Of a stretch of 64,000 bases of DNA, positions 4,612 to 36,932 are shown piece by piece. The stretch's first letter is position 1, and every line of letters begins with the position of its first letter. A program made the position numbers and the translations under genes. The stretch is from contig JABMQJ010000029.1 in the NCBI GenBank assembly GCA_013203315.1, positions 635 through 64,634 on the forward strand. Direction: 5' to 3'. This DNA is from Candidatus Omnitrophota bacterium. Its GTDB lineage: Bacteria; Omnitrophota; Gorgyraeia; JABMRN01; RBG-13-46-9. The notes below the pieces were generated by a model, which was not told the DNA's origin, searched no databases, and worked only from the letters and a program-made list of their open reading frames with translations.

Positions 4612-4971
4612 ATGTCCAGAATCAATGAAAAACGAAAATTCCCGAGGTTTGAAAGCCATTTCCCGTTGAAATATAGGGACTTAAAGATAGCAGACGCAGA
4701 ATACAGGGGAACAGTTTCAAAGAACGTATCAGAAGGCGGGATAAGATTTAGAAGCGATAGATTTATCTCTTTGGCCTGTCGATTGGTTGTTGAGGTCAAT
4801 CTGCCCACTACCTCCAAGCCCATAAGGGCTGTTTCCAAGATAGCATGGATAAAAAAGTTGCCCGCAGGAGATGACTACGAAATAGGGAACCAGTTCCTGG
4901 AGATAAGCAGGCAGGATAAAGGCGTTATCCGTAAGTTCATAGAAGAACAGCTAAAAAAATCCTCATTTTAA
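4612..4971 (+). CDS. PilZ domain protein (putative c-di-GMP receptor)
   Basis: RxxxR-like motif KRKFPRF near the N-terminus, and a D/NxSxGG motif (NVSEGGIRF) about 30 residues later. Size matches single-domain PilZ. Confidence 0.7.
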   Translation: MSRINEKRKFPRFESHFPLKYRDLKIADAEYRGTVSKNVSEGGIRFRSDRFISLACRLVVEVNLPTTSKPIRAVSKIAWIKKLPAGDDYEIGNQFLEISRQDKGVIRKFIEEQLKKSSF

Positions 4972-5020
4972 TACCGCATTTTACATTTTCCCAAACCCAT
5001 TCCCCTAGTAGCTAACAAGG

Positions 5021-6114: not shown

Positions 6115-6651
6115 ATGAAAAGAAACATATTTTTTACAATACTTTCGCTTGTGTTTTTATACGGTTGTGGCTATACCTCACATTCTGTGCTGCCGTCCGG
6201 CGAAGCCACTGTACATGTCGGTAATTTTGTTAACAAGATCGATACCACCAGAGAAATCTCGAATGATAGAGTATATTTTGCCTACAGGCCCGGCCTGGAG
6301 ACTGATATCACGCGCGCGGTCATTGATAAATTCATGATTGACGGGAATTACGAGATAAAGGACGAAAAAAGTGCGCATTTTCTACTAACTGGGGAACTTG
6401 TGAATTTCAGGAGAGAGCCGCTTCGTTACGACGCGAGCGAAAACGTTATAGAATACAGATTACACATAGCTGTCGATATCAAACTTTACGACCTCAAAAA
6501 GGAAAGCATCGTCTGGCGGGAAAATAACTTCGCAGGCGAGAGCACCTATCGCACAACAGGCCAGTTTGCCAAATCAGAAAGTGCCGCCATAACAGACGCC
6601 GTCAAAGATTTGGCGCGCCGCATTGTTGAGCGCACTGTTCTTAACTGGTGA
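6115..6651 (+). CDS. lptE: LptE-like LPS-assembly lipoprotein
   Basis: MKRNIFFTILSLVFLYGCGY carries a lipobox (L-Y-G-C). About 180 aa. Lies between leuS and holA, as in the enterobacterial leuS-lptE-holA arrangement. Size and context fit; the sequence match is weak. Confidence 0.5.
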   Translation: MKRNIFFTILSLVFLYGCGYTSHSVLPSGEATVHVGNFVNKIDTTREISNDRVYFAYRPGLETDITRAVIDKFMIDGNYEIKDEKSAHFLLTGELVNFRREPLRYDASENVIEYRLHIAVDIKLYDLKKESIVWRENNFAGESTYRTTGQFAKSESAAITDAVKDLARRIVERTVLNW

Positions 6652-6671
6652 GGCGAAACCTATAAACCCTC

Positions 6672-7610
6672 ATGAATTATCTCTGCAGAGGATCGGAGCA
6701 ATACCTAAAATACCAGTTCTTGGAGAAATTGAAAAAATCTCTTTCAGGCAAAAGTGAAAGCCATGATCTGGATTTCGAAGTTTTCACGGCCACTGACAAA
6801 GAATTTAAAAAAGTTTTTCTGGATTCCTTTAACACCCTACCGTTTATCTCAAAGCAAAAACTTACGGTCATAAAAGATATCGAAAAATTATCCTCCAAGG
6901 AAGAGGATCTAATTTTAAAAATATTAAAATCCCCCAAAGATTCGACAACCCTCGTACTTTTTAGCCAGGCGCGCGAATCTGACAAAGCCTTGCAAAAAAT
7001 ATCCAAATTTACAAAAGTTATAAAATGCGACAGATTGAAAGCAAACGATATTAATCTGTGGATAAAAAAAGATTTCGACACGCACAAAAAAATAATTTCA
7101 CCGCCTGTGATAAACCTCGTGAGAGAAATTGCCGGAACGGATTTATTTCGGCTTAAAAATGAGATAGAAAAAATATGCTCATTTCTTGGAAACGCGAACG
7201 TTGTTACGCGGGAGCATGTAGAAATGCTACTCGGAGAGCCTTCGTATAAAACGGCATTTCAGCTCGTAGATTTGACGCTGGAGAAAAAAATAGACAAGGC
7301 TTTATCGTTCTTAGATACATTGTTAACAAAGGAAAAGCCGCATCAGATCTTGAATTTACTTGCATGGCAATTCAGGAATTTTTTGAAGATAAAAAATTTA
7401 CCGAAAAGCGCATCTATAGAAGAAGTTTCCCGCGCATTAGGCATAAGCTGGCACTTTGCTAAGAGTGTACAAGAAAAAGCCGGGCGCTTTACCCAAGCAG
7501 CCCTGAAGAAGAATTTAGAAATTATCCTCGAAGCGGATTTGTTTATGAAAAGAGGAAAAATGGACGCGCGCGGTAGCTTAGAATATGCTTTAGTGAGCCT
7601 CTGCAAATAA
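6672..7610 (+). CDS. holA: DNA polymerase III delta subunit
   Basis: About 310 aa. Conserved position after the lptE-like gene. The delta-subunit pattern is only weakly recognisable by eye. Confidence 0.65.
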   Translation: MNYLCRGSEQYLKYQFLEKLKKSLSGKSESHDLDFEVFTATDKEFKKVFLDSFNTLPFISKQKLTVIKDIEKLSSKEEDLILKILKSPKDSTTLVLFSQARESDKALQKISKFTKVIKCDRLKANDINLWIKKDFDTHKKIISPPVINLVREIAGTDLFRLKNEIEKICSFLGNANVVTREHVEMLLGEPSYKTAFQLVDLTLEKKIDKALSFLDTLLTKEKPHQILNLLAWQFRNFLKIKNLPKSASIEEVSRALGISWHFAKSVQEKAGRFTQAALKKNLEIILEADLFMKRGKMDARGSLEYALVSLCK

Positions 7611-30580: not shown

Positions 30581-31999
30581 ATGCGAATTGCATTCGTGCA
30601 GAACTTGGCAGTTGAATATATGGGGGTTATGTATCTTTCCGCGGCACTGAAAGAAAACTCCCACAAAACTGAAATATTTATAGACAACGGAAACAGAAAG
30701 ATGTTCCGTGAAATCAAAGATTACAACCCGCATTTAATTGCTTTTTCCTGCACAACGGGATTGCATGAGTGGTGTTTGAATGTGGCAAGAGAGCTAAAAA
30801 AAATAGTCCCGGCAAAGGTTATTCTCGGTGGTTCCCACCCGACTTTTTTTCCAGAAGTAATAGAATCAGAGTTTGTAGACATAATATGCAGGGGGGAAGG
30901 GGATGGCGCTATTTTAGATTTAGCCAACAAAATGGAGGGTAAGAGTGATTATACGAAAACGCCGAATCTCTGGGTTTCGGTATCCGGAAAGATTATAAAA
31001 AACGACGTTCGCCCGTTGATAAAGAATCTCGACCTGTTACCTTTTCCAGATAGACAACTATACGAAGGTAAGTATCCTTACCTGAAAACCAGTCAGAAAG
31101 GAATCTTTACGGGCAGGGGATGCCCATTTAGCTGCTCCTACTGCTTTAATGATACCCTGAGGAATATCTATCGAGGAAAGGGGCAATACGTTAGAAAAAG
31201 GAGCGTTGACAATGTTATCGAGGAAATAGAACTATTGAGAAAAGAAGGCAAGGTAGAAACGGTCTATTTCGAGGATGACGTTTTTTTGATTGGCAGGGAA
31301 TGGTTTGAAGAATTCGCGGTGAAATACAGGCATAAAGTTAATATTCCGTATATTTGCCTTTTGAGGGTAGAAAGCATCAACGAACAAATTGTAAAAATGC
31401 TGAAAGAATCAAATTGCAGAAACGTATTTTTTGGCGTAGAAACCGGGTCCGAAGAGATAAGATTTAGATTGCTCAAGAGACGTATGACCGACAGGCAGAT
31501 TGTGGCCGCCGCCGCCCTTCTTAAGAAATACAATATAGGTTTTCGCACATACAATATTTTGGGGTTGCCCGAAGAGACAATAGAGGACGCGTTCAAAACA
31601 GTCCATCTCAACACTAGTATAGGGACGGATTATCCCTGGTGTTCGCTGCTTTATCCGTACCCCGGAACGGAAATTAATACGTATGCCCTTAAGCGTAACC
31701 TTATTTCAGATAAGGCCGACGACAGGAGTCATATATCTTTCTTCAAAAGCAGCGTGATAAAATTGGATAATAAAAATGAATTGGAGAACCTACAGAAATT
31801 ATTTTTTTATGCCGTAAAATTTCCAAGACTCGAGGGCATAATAAGAAAGCTTATAAAGATAAAACCAAACTTTATATTTAGTATCCTGTTTCTGCTAAGT
31901 TACGGGTGGTGTTCCTGGAAGAGCGAAAACCATAAAATCTCCGAAATAATTGTTCGGGGAATTAAGAATATATTTAAGTTATATTTTAAATCTAGTTGA
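30581..31999 (+). CDS. B12-binding domain radical SAM protein
   Basis: N-terminal cobalamin-binding region (HLIAFSCTT...ILGGSHPTFFP) followed by a radical SAM CxxxCxxC motif (GRGCPFSCSYCFN). Confidence 0.8.
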   Translation: MRIAFVQNLAVEYMGVMYLSAALKENSHKTEIFIDNGNRKMFREIKDYNPHLIAFSCTTGLHEWCLNVARELKKIVPAKVILGGSHPTFFPEVIESEFVDIICRGEGDGAILDLANKMEGKSDYTKTPNLWVSVSGKIIKNDVRPLIKNLDLLPFPDRQLYEGKYPYLKTSQKGIFTGRGCPFSCSYCFNDTLRNIYRGKGQYVRKRSVDNVIEEIELLRKEGKVETVYFEDDVFLIGREWFEEFAVKYRHKVNIPYICLLRVESINEQIVKMLKESNCRNVFFGVETGSEEIRFRLLKRRMTDRQIVAAAALLKKYNIGFRTYNILGLPEETIEDAFKTVHLNTSIGTDYPWCSLLYPYPGTEINTYALKRNLISDKADDRSHISFFKSSVIKLDNKNELENLQKLFFYAVKFPRLEGIIRKLIKIKPNFIFSILFLLSYGWCSWKSENHKISEIIVRGIKNIFKLYFKSS

Positions 32000-32186: not shown

Positions 32187-33722
32187 TTACCCAATCCAAA
32201 AATCCCTGTCCAAACTCCTGTATGATATTGCCTCCGAGATATGGCCTGCCTCGATGGTTTCTTTTTCATCGAGATCCGCGATGGTTCGGGCTACTTTCAG
32301 TATCTTATCGTATGCCCTCGCTGATATGCCGAGTTCCAGGATCGCCATCTTAAGCAGTTCTTCGCCTTCTTTATCGAGTACGCAGTATTTCTCAAGGTGC
32401 CTTGACTCGAGGTGCGCGTTAAAAAGGACCGAATTGGCCCTGTAGCGCTTCATCTGAATTTTTCGCGTTTTATTGACGCGCTTGCGTATTGCTTCGGATG
32501 TGTCGCCTTTTCTTCTCTGCGAGAGTTCTTCATAGTTTAGCCGGGGAACATTAAGATGTATATCAATTCTGTCGAGCAACGGCCCGGAAATTTTACCTAA
32601 ATAACGCTGTATCTGATACGGTGTGCAGTGACACTCCCGCTTTGGGTCGGTAAAGTTCCCACACGGGCAGGGATTCATGGCTGCTACGAGCATGAAGCGT
32701 GAGGGGTATTCACTATTTCCCTGGATTCTTGAGATCCGTATCGTGCCGTTTTCGATTGGCTGGCGGAGGAGTTCGAGGACGTTTCGTTTGAATTCCGGTA
32801 ACTCGTCAAGGAAAAGGACCCCGTTGTGTGCGAGGCTTATCTCGCCTGGCACAGGGGTTGTGCCGCCTCCTACCAGCGCTGCGTCGGAAATTGAATGATG
32901 GGGGTCCCTGAAGGGCCTGTGCAAGATAAGGCCTTTGTGCGGTGAAAGAAATCCTGCTACACTGTGGATTTTTGATGTTTCAAGGATTTCGTCGATAGAC
33001 ATTTCGGAAAGTATAGTAGGAACTCTTTTGGCTAACATGCTTTTACCGGAACCCGGAGGGCCTATAAGCAGTATGTTGTGCCCGCCTGACGAGGCGACTT
33101 CCAAACCTCTTTTTACATGCTCTTGGCCTTTGACATCGGTGAAGTCTCTTTTATGTTTATGCTTAAATCCCACTCTTAAAATGGGATGTCCATTTTGAGG
33201 ATCCATTTCCAGCTTGCCGTTTAAGAAATTTACGACGTCATTAAGAATTCCGAAGGTATAGATCTCCATGGTGTTCACGTTTTGCACTTCTAGTAAATTC
33301 TTTTTTGGTAGAATAAGTTTTTTAATACCTTCTTTCTTTAGCCCGAGAGATATCGGCAAAGCCCCTCTTATCTCCTTAAGATAGCCTTCCAATGACAATT
33401 CCCCGCAAAATGCAAATTCCAGAAGCCTCTCCTGATCTATAATTCCAAGAGCACAAAGTATGGCAAGGGCTATGGGCAAATCGAAGGCCGATCCTGTTTT
33501 TTTAATGTTAGCAGGAGCAAGATTTACGGTTATCTTTCCTTTGGGGAAGAGATGCCCCGAATTTTTTATGGCAAACTTTATCCGATCCCTGGACTCTCTT
33601 ATCGCGGTATCCGGTAGCCCTATTATGTTGAATACACGTAGCCCATCAGCTATGTCAGCTTCTACCTCAACCTTGTAAGCATCTAATCCTATTATTGTGC
33701 ATGATATACATTTCCCGATCAT
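32187..33722 (-). CDS. comM: Mg-chelatase-like AAA+ ATPase YifB/ComM
   Basis: N-terminal Lon-like domain (GLPDTAIRESRDRIKFAI), Walker A LLIGPPGSGKSMLA, C-terminal Mg-chelatase-type domain. Confidence 0.85.
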   Translation of the reverse strand: MIGKCISCTIIGLDAYKVEVEADIADGLRVFNIIGLPDTAIRESRDRIKFAIKNSGHLFPKGKITVNLAPANIKKTGSAFDLPIALAILCALGIIDQERLLEFAFCGELSLEGYLKEIRGALPISLGLKKEGIKKLILPKKNLLEVQNVNTMEIYTFGILNDVVNFLNGKLEMDPQNGHPILRVGFKHKHKRDFTDVKGQEHVKRGLEVASSGGHNILLIGPPGSGKSMLAKRVPTILSEMSIDEILETSKIHSVAGFLSPHKGLILHRPFRDPHHSISDAALVGGGTTPVPGEISLAHNGVLFLDELPEFKRNVLELLRQPIENGTIRISRIQGNSEYPSRFMLVAAMNPCPCGNFTDPKRECHCTPYQIQRYLGKISGPLLDRIDIHLNVPRLNYEELSQRRKGDTSEAIRKRVNKTRKIQMKRYRANSVLFNAHLESRHLEKYCVLDKEGEELLKMAILELGISARAYDKILKVARTIADLDEKETIEAGHISEAISYRSLDRDFWIG

Positions 33723-33725
33723 TTT

Positions 33726-34112
33726 TCACCTCTGGTATTCTTCAATTGCATCTTCAAAATGCTCTATTCTCACTTTTTTGATGAACCAAAAGATGCGTTT
33801 CATCTCTATCGAAACAACATCAATCTGCCATTTGACGCTTGAAATATTTTTCATTTTTAAATAACACGAAGCACATTGTATAAGTTTTCTTTTCTTTTTC
33901 TCCGTTATGGATTGATGCGGCGGCCCAAATGAAGAAGAGCGTCTTGTTTTCACTTCTACAAAAATAAAAGAACCATCTTTTTTTGCTATAAGGTCAAGTT
34001 CTCCAACAAACGTTTTGATGTTTTTACCTATTATCTTATATCCTTTACGGGAGAGAAACCGCGCCGCGATATCTTCGCCTACTTTACCTAAAGCACGGTT
34101 TCTCATACCCAT
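33726..34112 (-). CDS. YraN family (UPF0102) endonuclease
   Basis: GEDIAARFLSRKGYKII...GELDLIAKKDGSFIFVEVKTR is a PD-(D/E)xK-like motif typical of the YraN family. Confidence 0.75.
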   Translation of the reverse strand: MGMRNRALGKVGEDIAARFLSRKGYKIIGKNIKTFVGELDLIAKKDGSFIFVEVKTRRSSSFGPPHQSITEKKKRKLIQCASCYLKMKNISSVKWQIDVVSIEMKRIFWFIKKVRIEHFEDAIEEYQR

Positions 34113-34124
34113 TTTTTACACCGC

Positions 34125-34412
34125 CTACTCGCTTTCCCCCCGGGCCTCGTAAGCCTGGAGCACGGTTTCAGATATGTATTCCTTGATTTCGTTTGTCGCA
34201 GGCAGGAACACATTAAACCACTTACCTTGTTTGCTTTGCTGCTGCGGCATGCCGACAAACATGCCCTTCTCGCCTTCAACGATCCTGAATCCTTTAACCA
34301 GAAAAAGATCCCCGAAAGCGAGGTCACAGAAAGCCTTTAACTTGCTTTCACCTTCGAGCTTGGTCATTCGGTCAACTTTCAAATTTAGAACTTCGCTAAC
34401 CATTTTTTTCAC
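34125..34412 (-). CDS. spoVG: SpoVG family protein
   Basis: Conserved ...FGDLFLVKGFRIVEGEKGMFVGMPQQQSKQGKWFNVFLPATNEIKEYISETVLQAY. The true start is probably the ATG 9 nt downstream of the GTG (MVSEVLN...), given the adjacent GGAGG. Confidence 0.8.
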   Translation of the reverse strand: MKKMVSEVLNLKVDRMTKLEGESKLKAFCDLAFGDLFLVKGFRIVEGEKGMFVGMPQQQSKQGKWFNVFLPATNEIKEYISETVLQAYEARGESE

Positions 34413-34419
34413 CTCCCTT

Positions 34420-34458
34420 CATATATATAGACAATCGAAAGACGGATTTTACTGCATG
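34420..34458 (-). promoter_or_regulatory. Conserved upstream motif, copy A, directly 5' of the spoVG SD (minus-strand reading ATGCAGTAAAATCCGTCTTTCGATTGTCTATATATATGA)
   Basis: Shares ATGCAGnAAAATC-N11-TTGTCTATATATATG-AGGG with copy B at 35556-35594. Confidence 0.45.
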
Positions 34459-34559
34459 TATTTTCGAATTTTTTTTAAATAAAAGAATTGTAATAGTTCT
34501 GTATCAGGGGTTTACACGGGGAATACGGAGTGCTATAATATACTTATTCGGGAGGAAGT

Positions 34560-34826
34560 ATGACGCAGAAAATCGCGCTTATAGCAGCAATTGTATTACC
34601 GTTCTGGAATATACCGCTTATCGTCAGGATCATTAAAAGGAAATCCTCCGACGACATAAGTATATTATGGGTGCTGGGCGTATGGACGTGTTTTTTACTC
34701 ATGGCACCGGAAGGATTCCGTTCTCCTGACCCGGTTTGGCGGACATTTAATATAGTTAATATGGTGCTTTTCAGCGCTGTTGTCATTACGGTATTAGCGT
34801 ATAAAAGAAAAGGCAAAAAGAAGTAG
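34560..34826 (+). CDS. Small 3-TM membrane protein, possibly lipid-A-disaccharide synthase N-terminal (LAB_N)-like
   Basis: Strong GGGAGGAAG SD. Has RIIKRKSSDDISILW...SPDPVW pattern. LAB_N assignment is tentative and from memory. Confidence 0.4.
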   Translation: MTQKIALIAAIVLPFWNIPLIVRIIKRKSSDDISILWVLGVWTCFLLMAPEGFRSPDPVWRTFNIVNMVLFSAVVITVLAYKRKGKKK

Positions 34827-34852
34827 ATACAAAAAGAGGAGCTTGTTTTTAA

Positions 34853-35116
34853 GTGAAGCTATCTAAGCAGCTTATAGTGTTTTGGGTTACGCTTGGCCTT
34901 ATCGTGGTATTTTTGGGGCTGGAAAGGGAAGGCTCCGTCTCATCGGATATTAACAAAACCCCGACACTTTTCCCGCTTACTTTTTACGGATTAAGTCTTT
35001 ATAGCCCGGGCACGGATAAAACTATGCCAATCGAGCCCTGGGAAGAAAACGAAGAAGAACCAAAAGACCTTTTAAATTTTCCCGATGTCCGCATAGAGGA
35101 GAGCTGGGGCATTTAG
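34853..35116 (+). CDS. Small membrane/secreted hypothetical protein
   Basis: GTG start with AGAGGAG SD. N-terminal hydrophobic segment and an acidic C-terminus. Confidence 0.35.
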   Translation: MKLSKQLIVFWVTLGLIVVFLGLEREGSVSSDINKTPTLFPLTFYGLSLYSPGTDKTMPIEPWEENEEEPKDLLNFPDVRIEESWGI

Positions 35117-35544
35117 CGGCTGAAACGGTCGTCCAAGCCTCCTAAAACCTTAGAAGCTTCTTTTTCCCCGCCTTGTTTCCACGCATCATAAATCATTATA
35201 AGGATACGCGCGTTTACGCTGTCAAATATCCACTTCGTCCCCATAAGGATTGTGGCAACGAGGAGTTGTATAAAATAACGTGGCACTAAGAACGAAAGAG
35301 TAAAGGTTAGTATGCTTGCGAATAACCAGAGATTTTTCTTCCACATAGATTTCATGGATTTTTCTCCTTTATATTTTTTCCCGGAAAATTCTTCGACTGT
35401 TTTATAGGCAAACGCCAATTTTTCCAGACAATCACCGCAGTCTTTCAGGTGATTTTCTATCCCCGCTTTTTTTTCTTCCGAAACTGCCCCATTTAAGTAG
35501 TCATTTATTTCAACATCACGCAGGCATGTACCGAGATTTTTCAT
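35113..35544 (-). CDS. Anti-sigma factor, zinc-binding (ZAS-like HxxxCxxC) with one TM segment
   Basis: ORF track 35113..35571. ATG at 35544 has a GGAGGGG SD. Contains HLKDCGDCLEK and a TM segment LWLFASILTFTLSFLV. Lies immediately downstream of the ECF sigma gene. Confidence 0.6.
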   Translation of the reverse strand: MKNLGTCLRDVEINDYLNGAVSEEKKAGIENHLKDCGDCLEKLAFAYKTVEEFSGKKYKGEKSMKSMWKKNLWLFASILTFTLSFLVPRYFIQLLVATILMGTKWIFDSVNARILIMIYDAWKQGGEKEASKVLGGLDDRFSR

Positions 35545-35555
35545 GTTAGGCCCCT

Positions 35556-35594
35556 CCATATATATAGACAACGGAAAATGCGATTTTGCTGCAT
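35556..35594 (-). promoter_or_regulatory. Conserved upstream motif, copy B, between the sigma stop and the anti-sigma SD
   Basis: Minus-strand reading ATGCAGCAAAATCGCATTTTCCGTTGTCTATATATATGG. It abuts the sigma TGA stop codon. Confidence 0.45.
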
Positions 35595-36166
35595 CATTTT
35601 TTAAAATATTTTATTTTTGCCCTCATTCGTGTAACTGCCGATGACACGGTACCGACGGGGACGCGTATGATTTTAGCGATACCTTCTAAACCAACACCTT
35701 TCTTAAAAAAAAGATCGAAAATAATTTTTTCTTTCGAGGAAAGACGATTACAAAACTGTTCTATTTCTTTACGGGCATCCAGGGTACTGCCAATATTTTG
35801 CGCGGAACCCGGGGCCTGTAACTTCTCAAAAAACAACTCGTCAGTAACAAGGACCTCTTTTTGAAAGGCCTTTAAATGATTAATGGTCGCGTTTCTGGCG
35901 GTAACCACAAGCCAGTAGTCTATGCTATCCCGATTTGTTACCTCAGCCAGCTTGTTTTTACCCCAAAGAGTGGTCATTATGCTTTGGTATATGTCCTTGG
36001 TGTCTTCTTGGGCCCTGCGAAAATCAACGGAATATTTTGACAACGCTTTTTTTATCGAAAATGTAATAATGGGTGAAAATCTTTTGATAAATTCTGCCCA
36101 CGCCAGGCCGTCCTGCCCAACGCATTTTTCGATTAATGAAGAAGTTGCGAGATCCTTATATTTCAT
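35594..36166 (-). CDS. ECF-type RNA polymerase sigma-70 family factor
   Basis: Region 2 (LVVTARNATINHLKA) and region 4 HTH (GLEGIAKIIRVPVGTVSSAVTRMRAKIK). About 190 aa. Confidence 0.8.
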   Translation of the reverse strand: MKYKDLATSSLIEKCVGQDGLAWAEFIKRFSPIITFSIKKALSKYSVDFRRAQEDTKDIYQSIMTTLWGKNKLAEVTNRDSIDYWLVVTARNATINHLKAFQKEVLVTDELFFEKLQAPGSAQNIGSTLDARKEIEQFCNRLSSKEKIIFDLFFKKGVGLEGIAKIIRVPVGTVSSAVTRMRAKIKYFKK

Positions 36167-36174
36167 GATAAGCG

Positions 36175-36897
36175 CTAGGTTAACTTTTTTACGGCGTCTT
36201 TTTGCGTTAAAACCGTTATGCCTTTTGACATGATATAATCGATATGTTTTTTGAAATCATCTATGTGCGTGAAGAATCTGTAAGGCTTTGGCCTATGCGC
36301 GCTTCGGGTATTTTTTTTACCTACCAGATGAAACACTTCTATTAACCAGAGATTTTCTTTCCGAGCGTAATCAACTAATTTTTCCAGAAACGGGAGAGAA
36401 TGTTTTTTCATGATGGCGAAGCCCCCGACGGCGTAAGGATCTTTTAAAGGGATTTTGTTGAAACTTGGCGTATTAGAAGTTATCCGCGCAGATTTATAGT
36501 AAAGACTTGTTTTTAATCGGAGCGACTTTGTTTGATTTTTATTTATGTACGGAAACACAAAAGAATCCACGCGGTAGTTTAAAAGACGCCCAAGTTTTGT
36601 TTTGGAACCACCAAGCTCCGTGGCCACCGCTTTTTTATCTTTTGCGGCCAGGCGAAAAAGGTTGGGATGGCCGAGGGTATGGGAAGCGACTTCGTGGCCC
36701 GACTTGATAATGTTTTTAAGTTCCTTTACCCCGGCAACGGGACGATTTTCAAATCTTTTTCCCACGTATAATGCCGGCACCGCGATAGTAGATTTAATTT
36801 TTAACTTATCAAGATACTTTATCGCATACCTATATGTATCCAGATACGCATCATCGAAGGCAATGGTAATAACGCCTTTTCCGGTTGGCTTTCGCAT
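36175..36897 (-). CDS. Polysaccharide deacetylase (NodB homology domain)
   Basis: TIAFDDAYLDTY...HEVASHTLGHPNL motifs. First gene of the sigma/anti-sigma operon. Confidence 0.75.
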   Translation of the reverse strand: MRKPTGKGVITIAFDDAYLDTYRYAIKYLDKLKIKSTIAVPALYVGKRFENRPVAGVKELKNIIKSGHEVASHTLGHPNLFRLAAKDKKAVATELGGSKTKLGRLLNYRVDSFVFPYINKNQTKSLRLKTSLYYKSARITSNTPSFNKIPLKDPYAVGGFAIMKKHSLPFLEKLVDYARKENLWLIEVFHLVGKKNTRSAHRPKPYRFFTHIDDFKKHIDYIMSKGITVLTQKDAVKKLT

Positions 36898-36903
36898 GTC
36901 ATA

Positions 36904-36932
36904 AGTGTAATAAAAACATGAGGTTGTGTCAA
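36904..36932 (-). promoter_or_regulatory. sigma70-like promoter TTGACA-N17-TACACT on the minus strand; -10 is only 6 nt from the deacetylase ATG (possible leaderless mRNA)
   Basis: Reverse complement of 36904-36932 is TTGACACAACCTCATGTTTTTATTACACT, followed by TATGAC and then ATG. Confidence 0.4.

Follow-up and report, generated by a model that had tools for sequence, protein, structure and literature searches.

Candidate promoters for an ECF-type sigma factor at an anti-sigma gene and at spoVG in Omnitrophota

Many extracytoplasmic function (ECF) sigma factors regulate their own synthesis, and a copy of the promoter upstream of the sigma gene is common, though not universal. Promoters for sigma-E of Escherichia coli read GGAACTT-N16-TCAAA/GTC-type −10, promoters for sigma-W, sigma-M, and sigma-X of Bacillus subtilis read TGAAAC or TGCAAC, then N16-17, then CGTC, and structures of sigma-E with the −10 element place the G of GTC in ECF −10 elements at promoter position −12. 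An ECF promoter is expected to start transcription about 6-8 nt past its −10 block. The gene spoVG is under sigma-H in B. subtilis, and the corresponding operon in staphylococci is yabJ-spoVG. Omnitrophota are uncultured and, to our knowledge, almost nothing is known of their gene regulation. Here we analyze 64,000 nucleotides (nt) of DNA from a Candidatus Omnitrophota bacterium (GCA_013203315.1, contig JABMQJ010000029.1, positions 635-64,634 of the forward strand; hereafter, the window), in which one copy of a motif precedes spoVG (copy A) and another lies between the gene for an ECF-type sigma factor and the gene for its presumed anti-sigma factor (copy B). SpoVG is sigma-B-controlled in Staphylococcus aureus (PMC3313859), and, according to PMC8595263 (citing Rhodius et al. 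2006), rseA P3 of E. coli is a sigma-E-dependent promoter that lies inside rpoE and transcribes rseABC. From the sequence comparisons below, we conclude that copies A and B are probably paired promoters whose activity depends on the ECF-type sigma factor encoded next to them (35594-36166).

Two minus-strand copies of the motif are present where the preliminary description of this DNA had placed them (34457->34415 and 35594->35552). The exact 15-mer TTGTCTATATATATG and the 13-mer ATGCAGNAAAATC each have just two occurrences in 64 kb, at copies A and B, and a repeat search returns the pair as the top direct-repeat family of the window (61 nt, 75% identity). By itself, the exact 15-mer repeat is not significant in 64 kb; the case for a non-chance motif therefore comes from the extended match and from conservation in other genomes, not from the 15-mer alone. 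The extended match comprises 35 of 43 positions and is the best 43-nt ungapped repeat in the window, whereas the best such repeats in 60 first-order Markov random windows average 29.2 matches and reach at most 32. The earlier judgment that the shared element is unlikely to have arisen by chance is thus borne out. Both copies also carry an A-tract ahead of ATGCAG, which brings their length to about 60 nt rather than the ~40 nt first proposed, and their 3' end, GRAGGG, overlaps the Shine-Dalgarno (SD) sequence in both cases, rather than stopping ~3-5 nt short of it as had been thought. Copy B does fill the interval between sigma stop codon and anti-sigma start codon, as described: it spans the 49-nt gap from the stop TGA (35596-35594) to the ATG (35544), and it begins on the final base of the stop codon. 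The features of the two copies are as follows.

34457->34415, minus strand: copy A, ATGCAGTAAAATCCGTCTTTCGATTGTCTATATATATGAAGGG
34415..34479, minus strand: copy A with its A-tract, predicted spoVG-yraN-comM promoter (nhmmer match 34410-34470, E=8e-12)
34458-34479, minus strand: A-tract of copy A
34448-34455, minus strand: −35-like block of copy A, GCAGTAAA, followed by the T-tract CTTTC
34427-34432, minus strand: −10-like GTCTAT of copy A, followed by the TA-rich stretch
34420, minus strand: predicted +1 G of copy A
34415-34420, minus strand: GAAGGG of copy A
35594->35552, minus strand: copy B, ATGCAGCAAAATCGCATTTTCCGTTGTCTATATATATGGAGGG
35552..35606, minus strand: copy B with its A-tract, predicted anti-sigma gene promoter (nhmmer match 35546-35607, E=3e-16)
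35597-35606, minus strand: A-tract of copy B, within the last sigma codons
35594-35596, minus strand: sigma stop codon TGA
35585-35592, minus strand: −35-like block of copy B, GCAGCAAA, followed by the T-tract
35564-35569, minus strand: −10-like GTCTAT of copy B
35557, minus strand: predicted +1 G of copy B; the copy also has GGAGGG, which doubles as SD

Alignment on GTCT of 29 distinct copies from the close clade defines the anatomy of the motif. Relative to the G of GTC, an A-tract occupies −32 to −24, the block GC(A/C)GCAAA occupies −22 to −15, and a T-tract occupies −8 to −5. The GTCT itself, at 0 to +3, is nearly invariant (G in 29/29, the T of GTC in 27/29, C in 29/29, second T in 29/29); the base before it is C or T, and it is followed by alternating TATATAT, then by G at +12 (25/29, otherwise A), then by RRGGG. 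The gap from the TGCAGC hexamer to GTCT is 17 or 18 nt throughout the 29 copies, such that the −35 and −10 blocks stand at a nearly fixed distance, within the approximately 16-18 nt expected of an ECF promoter. The −10 element is of the CGT/GTC type, with two exceptions, GACT in L033 and ATC in L035, each found in both copies of the respective locus. With the G of GTC taken as −12, the A-tract falls at −44 to −36 (the UP-element zone), the −35 block falls at −34 to −27, and the conserved G falls at +1. On this geometry, the conserved purine 12 nt past the G of GTC is the predicted transcription start, and the TA-rich stretch upstream of it should melt easily.

The motif is conserved, at the same two positions, across related genomes. 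The relatives comprise loci fetched from metagenomes and metagenome-assembled genomes through sigma homologues (31-90% identity; labeled Candidatus Omnitrophota in the databases) and through SpoVG homologues (69-76% identity), and the window and the 10-20 kb flanks of the relatives were searched with an nhmmer profile based on the 14 copies of alignment A1. The cassette deacetylase - ECF-type sigma factor - zinc anti-sigma factor - spoVG-yraN-comM recurs in 16 related lineages; the order spoVG-yraN-comM is kept in the related loci that extend that far, and the anti-sigma gene follows the sigma gene in nearly every related locus (in L039 the gene caller missed it, but the sequence is still visible). 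In each locus that holds both regions, the profile has exactly two significant matches (E 1e-8 to 1e-16): the first sits where the sigma gene ends, ahead of the anti-sigma gene, and the second precedes spoVG (L008, L010, L012, L014, L015, L026, L028-L034, and L037-L039, with sigma identity down to 42%). In L035, where the sigma factor is 31% identical, both copies are kept at the same spacing, with diverged blocks. Neither the 64-kb window nor any of the 10-20 kb flanks contains a further significant profile match. A metagenome scan with an exact 20-mer gave nine matches: three are true motifs (L019, L021, and L025), all of A or B type, and the other six contain the 20-mer alone, about the number expected by chance. 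Four SpoVG loci were fetched as possible sigma-less controls, and three of them held the cassette and both copies; the fourth, L040, is taken up below. The check called for earlier, whether orthologous sigma operons carry the motif, thus comes out in its favor: both copies are present in the related lineages wherever the fetched contig spans both regions, and the similarity persists.

The position of the motif relative to the gene that follows it is less constant than its position in the cassette. The predicted +1 lies 13 and 17 nt before the ATG in the window, 30-125 nt before the ATG of spoVG in relatives, and ~140 nt (L031) and ~190 nt (L016) before the ATG of the anti-sigma gene. The statement in the preliminary description that the copies are placed identically relative to the SD therefore holds for this genome and its closest relatives, but not beyond them; overall, the distance from motif to start codon ranges from 13 to ~190 nt. 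The spoVG copy, by contrast, travels with spoVG through rearrangements. In L031, spoVG is 7 kb away and the motif precedes it; in L014 and L034, an ORF6N gene is inserted after the spoVG motif; and in the window, two opposite-strand genes are inserted between the anti-sigma gene and copy A.

Comparison of coding and non-coding copies indicates that selection acts on the DNA. The −35 block lies outside coding sequence in every A copy and in copy B of the window, but consists of the last sigma codons in L008, L010, L014, L015, and L028, where it is read, for example, as TGC-AGC-AAA (Cys-Ser-Lys) or CAC-CGC-AAA (His-Arg-Lys). Because the block is conserved both where it is coding and where it is not, selection is on DNA, not on peptide. 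In addition, the two copies within a genome change together. Both copies have GACT in place of GTCT in L033, GCAAC with a nearly identical GC-rich spacer in L012, CCGC...CGTC in the clade of L010, L014, L015, and L030, AGCAGTCT in L039, and CGCGTGTCTTATATAT in L029; in L035, both copies read AAAATAAAAY-N9-CTGCATCATATATAGTRG and have ATCA with AAATAAAA. Mean identity between copies A and B is 0.77 within a genome vs. 0.56-0.61 between genomes. Such parallel changes are expected if both sites track one trans-acting factor of the same genome; gene conversion is an alternative account of them.

The genes around the two copies supply a candidate for that factor.

36904..36932, minus strand: sigma-70-type promoter TTGACA-17-TACACT of the deacetylase-sigma operon (promoter scan; conserved in relatives)
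36175-36897, minus strand: polysaccharide deacetylase gene, first gene of the deacetylase-sigma operon
35594..36166, minus strand: gene for the ECF-type sigma factor, 190 amino acids (aa), the proposed trans-acting factor (TIGR02937 sigma70-ECF, 58.9 bits vs. a cut-off of 42.9)
35113..35544, minus strand: gene for a membrane anti-sigma factor, 143 aa, with an HxxxCxxC zinc motif (Pfam zf-HC2, 25.2 bits vs. a cut-off of 22.2)
34125-34403, minus strand: spoVG (Pfam SpoVG)
33726-34112, minus strand: yraN/UPF0102 (Pfam UPF0102)
32187-33722, minus strand: comM/Mg-chelatase-like gene, 511-aa product (Mg_chelatase family matches)

The minus-strand order is thus deacetylase, sigma, copy B, anti-sigma, two plus-strand genes, copy A, spoVG, yraN, and comM, with intergenic gaps of 12 and 3 nt within the spoVG-yraN-comM operon (32187..34403). 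The TIGR02937 match covers residues 22-186 of the sigma factor, Pfam gives weak matches to regions 2 and 4, and the nearest solved structures, by profile matches to the PDB, are ECF sigma factors, including SigW and sigma-E, at a distance. The pair accordingly has the make-up of an ECF system: a sigma factor of ~190 aa with regions 2 and 4 only, and an anti-sigma factor of the zinc-binding (ZAS; HxxxCxxC) type encoded downstream. The two small plus-strand genes (34511-35116) have a promoter of their own, TTTACA-17-TATAAT, and encode an 88-aa membrane protein with a weak MtN3/SemiSWEET-like match and an 87-aa protein without a family; they are a lineage-specific insertion that splits the anti-sigma gene from spoVG, which are neighbors in most relatives.

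In the window and likewise in four relatives (L008, L010, L012, and L016), only 6-7 nt separate the end of the deacetylase-sigma operon promoter from the deacetylase ATG (36897 in the window), a distance that implies a conserved leaderless mRNA without an SD; in L035, the sigma gene has its own promoter, TTGACA-17-TATCAT, which ends 7 nt before the sigma ATG. A canonical TTGACA-17-TATAAT promoter also precedes lysS. Since the lineage uses textbook sigma-70 promoters, the motif is not the ordinary promoter type of this organism.

The conservation of the motif at both positions, its bipartite GTC-type layout, and its co-variation with the divergence of the sigma factor together point to promoters used by the adjacent sigma factor, in agreement with one of the possibilities raised in the preliminary description. 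According to this reading, the sigma gene would be transcribed together with the deacetylase gene from the sigma-70 promoter, and the membrane ZAS-type anti-sigma factor would presumably free the sigma factor upon an envelope or redox signal. Free sigma factor would bring RNA polymerase to copy B, yielding a short-leader anti-sigma mRNA that starts near 35557, and to copy A, yielding an output mRNA for spoVG-yraN-comM that starts near 34420. If copy B is driven by the sigma factor, then the sigma factor induces its own inhibitor, which constitutes negative feedback; and, since the sigma operon has no copy in front of it, the reading predicts no positive autoregulation.

Several observations weigh against a straightforward assignment of the motif to an ECF sigma factor. 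The AAC of ECF −35 elements is absent from most copies, which read GCAGCAAA or CCGCAAAA, and only L012 has GCAAC; because ECF groups differ in their −35 elements, the missing AAC lowers the fit but does not exclude an ECF sigma factor. Profile and promoter scans find no motif upstream of the deacetylase-sigma operon, which carries TTGACA-17-TACACT in that place, and the window and flanks contain no third copy, hence no larger regulon as corroboration. Conservation extends to the spacer T-tract, to the stretch from the −10 element to the start, and to the first transcribed bases, GRAGGG; this constraint is wider than a sigma factor alone normally imposes, and a second function or gene conversion may contribute to it. 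L040 has a weak partial motif before spoVG but no sigma cassette within 5 kb, and the promoter role, the start sites, and the identity of the sigma factor are each something we infer. Since both the AAC hallmark and the autoregulatory position are missing, we call the motif ECF-type and assign it to no described ECF group.

The L040 element lies at 4950-5000, where GCCTCCTGCGTCTATTAAGGTTAGAGGAGG upstream of spoVG resembles a copy A of the L010 type (profile E=0.038). The SpoVG of L040 is 55% identical, and its gene stands in a different context, after chorismate synthase. The spoVG-linked element may thus be older than its synteny with the sigma gene.

The motif might alternatively be a promoter for a different sigma factor (another alternative sigma factor, or the housekeeping sigma factor with an activator), in which case the adjacency of the sigma gene would be mere synteny. 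The −35 block without the hallmark AAC, the TATATAT stretch as a possible −10 region, and the L040 element would all fit, as would the control of spoVG by non-ECF alternative sigma factors in Firmicutes, including sigma-B in S. aureus (PMC3313859). We nonetheless consider this quite unlikely. In every lineage, the 3' end of the sigma gene has one copy physically joined to it, and both copies change jointly as the adjacent sigma factor diverges. Nor does the motif have the make-up of a housekeeping promoter, with TTGACA-like and TATAAT-like hexamers 16-18 nt apart: the sigma-70 scan omits it, although neighboring genes score 10-12 of 12, manual alignment gives a best −35 hexamer fit of 2 of 6, and invariance falls on GTCT rather than on the A and T positions that mark a TATAAT box. 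An operator, proposed earlier as well, would be a site for a sequence-specific DNA-binding protein, SpoVG itself (autoregulatory) or another regulator, which would bind both copies and control promoters within or beside them. The motif always accompanies spoVG, homologues of SpoVG are site-specific DNA-binding proteins (PMC3688583), conservation spans all ~60 nt, spacer and sequence past the −10 element included, and the concerted evolution of the copies within genomes fits any trans-acting factor. The layout, however, is asymmetric and bipartite with promoter-like spacing, the best-conserved bases, GTC, are typical ECF −10 bases, and the motif shows no dyad symmetry other than the TATATATA run and has no reported inverted repeat. 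An operator would, moreover, still require a separate promoter, and no canonical sigma-70 promoter is found on the coding strand of the 147-nt spoVG upstream region or of its counterparts in L008 and L028. We therefore regard an operator as unlikely, and that part of the preliminary description as unsupported.

Two further accounts fare worse, namely that the motif acts in RNA and that it has no regulatory role. As an RNA element, it would be a 5' leader that controls translation or an SD-like stabilizer of the 5' end; in one version, the pyrimidine tract TTTCC would pair with the SD-like GGAGGG, such that transcripts reading through from the sigma gene would mask the anti-sigma ribosome-binding site. 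Minimum-free-energy folds of both window copies do pair the T-tract with GRAGGG, GRAGGG is kept even where no start codon is close behind, and some lineages show matching changes (CCTCT with AGAGG, CCCC with GGGG). But RNAalifold on 14 copies gives 0 consensus pairs, the folding z-scores of the window copies are +0.68 and +0.78 (no better than shuffles), and the duplex of T-tract and purine tract is no better with a copy's own partner than with that of another copy (−5.6 vs. −5.4 kcal/mol, permutation p=0.25). Pairing of the T-tract with GRAGGG as an anti-SD was accordingly rejected as generic pyrimidine-purine complementarity. Rfam returns no match at the gathering threshold, and only a spurious long non-coding RNA match at E<=1. 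The element has no fixed position relative to start codon or SD: the distance from +1 to start codon varies about 15-fold, from 13 to ~190 nt, and the motif is therefore not tied to the ribosome-binding site. Copy A of the window lies in a divergent intergenic region into which no upstream gene reads on that strand, and, under the promoter geometry, the upstream half of the motif would be untranscribed. The conserved leader RNA proposed earlier is thus not supported by the folding check called for with it, and we consider a role in RNA very unlikely. That the copies are remnants of a dispersed repeat or mobile element, similar to repetitive extragenic palindromic (REP) sequences or miniature inverted-repeat transposable elements (MITEs), or are similar by chance, is extremely improbable. 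Y1-transposase genes do occur near the cassette in L012, L014, and L039, a MITE-like insertion lies inside copy B of L016, and the 15-mer taken singly is not significant; yet the motif forms no hairpin, the match between the window copies exceeds that in all 60 random windows, and, in place of many dispersed, palindromic copies, each locus has just two, placed at the same pair of gene boundaries in lineages with sigma identity down to 31%. A dispersed repeat is largely refuted by this syntenic conservation.

The full-length conservation, the purely negative wiring, and the overlap with sigma codons leave a small probability for an added post-transcriptional layer on top of promoter function. 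We assign quite a low probability to one form of it, a two-transcript switch in which the ~60-nt module would be both a promoter and a translational gate on the anti-sigma gene. In such a switch, read-through mRNA made from the sigma-70 promoter would include the pyrimidine tract, which would mask the ribosome-binding site of the anti-sigma gene, giving sigma factor without inhibitor. The mRNA made from the internal ECF promoter would have the SD at its very 5' end and would be freely translated, perhaps with that SD stabilizing it. If this were true, the feedback of this ECF module would be purely negative and gated at translation, and the module would be hard-wired to spoVG throughout an uncultured phylum.

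A separate leader is present upstream of spoVG in relatives. It is 75-90 nt long (L010 7201-7300, L030 11238-11336, L008 7239-7330; also L014, L015, and L037), is absent in the window, and contains, just upstream of the SD, ACGCUCAU, which is exactly complementary to the start region AUGAGCG(U). In the hairpin that is predicted (z −1.5 to −2.0), the loop holds the SD and the stem includes the start codon, and an Rfam search of the leaders of L008, L010, and L030 gave no match. This modeled hairpin may provide translational control of spoVG, lost by deletion of the leader in the lineage of the window.

Other sequences related to the motif, or to its surroundings, were also noted. A partial −10 half, TTTCCGTTGTCTATAAATATT, at 30674-30694 of the minus strand matches copy B at 19/21 bases and lies antisense within a radical-SAM gene (30581-31999), with GGAAC 17 nt upstream of its GTC. 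As a third copy it was rejected, being not significant (profile E=1.8) and without the −35 half; it probably reflects chance or coding constraint, and less probably an antisense ECF-like promoter. The ATG inside the motif was rejected as a start codon or as the start of a leaderless reading frame: it is in frame with the anti-sigma gene in the window, L007, L010, and L015, but out of frame or followed by an immediate stop in L008, L012, and L014 and in copy A. Also rejected was a sigma-70 promoter on the reverse strand of the motif, TAGACA-N17 having no usable −10 hexamer after it (read from the sequence). In L016, a 184-nt GC-rich insertion with 33-nt inverted repeats (6602-6794) interrupts copy B and separates its predicted +1 from the anti-sigma gene. 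A directly repeated 9-nt sequence, ATATGGAGG, borders the insertion, which leaves promoter and SD both intact and looks like a MITE with target-site duplication. The Y1-transposase (IS200/IS605- or RAYT-like) genes lie just downstream of comM (L012 9475-10056, L014 10131-10604, L039 7324-7809), and ORF6N-domain genes occur at varying positions in the cassette (L014 7172-7687, L038 4598-5119). The surroundings of the cassette seem to be a hotspot for small insertions.

If the reading as sigma-dependent promoters is right, the locus provides a concrete triplet of sigma factor, anti-sigma factor, and promoter, a predicted two-promoter regulon (the anti-sigma gene and spoVG-yraN-comM), and a testable consensus for a divergent ECF family. 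It would be an ECF module with negative feedback only, with a promoter partly embedded in the last codons of the sigma gene, and possibly a new orthogonal sigma/promoter pair for synthetic biology. Conceptually, the analysis is phylogenetic footprinting of a known type of element, and the mechanism is not new; what is unusual is that the motif is conserved over its full length, that feedback would be wired as purely negative, and that the promoter overlaps the last sigma codons. A full-text literature search gave, among the matches listed, no paper pairing Omnitrophota with a sigma factor or SpoVG.

Compared with described ECF (group 4) promoters, the motif is alike in being bipartite with a gap of 17-18 nt, in having a −10 element built on an invariant GTC (CGTC or TGTC), and in lying beside a pair of ECF-type sigma factor and ZAS anti-sigma factor; in L012, it reads TGCAAC-N17-GTCT. 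It differs in its −35 block, GC(A/C)GCAAA, mostly without AAC, in the lack of a copy before the sigma gene, and in a conservation that reaches the A-tract, the spacer T-tract, the TA-rich stretch, and the first transcribed bases. With respect to spoVG, the locus resembles Firmicutes in that the gene would be under an alternative sigma factor instead of, or besides, the housekeeping sigma factor, and differs in that the sigma factor is ECF-type, the organism belongs to Omnitrophota, and the operon partners are yraN and comM rather than the yabJ of staphylococci. The closest functional precedent for copy B is rseA P3 of E. coli: like P3, copy B lies at or inside the sigma gene and would drive only the anti-sigma gene, giving sigma-induced negative feedback. 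P3 lies >230 nt upstream of rseA and gives a long, structured leader, whereas the predicted leader from copy B is 13 nt; and E. coli also has a sigma-E-dependent promoter upstream of rpoE, whereas none was found here, such that the feedback predicted for the Omnitrophota module is purely negative.

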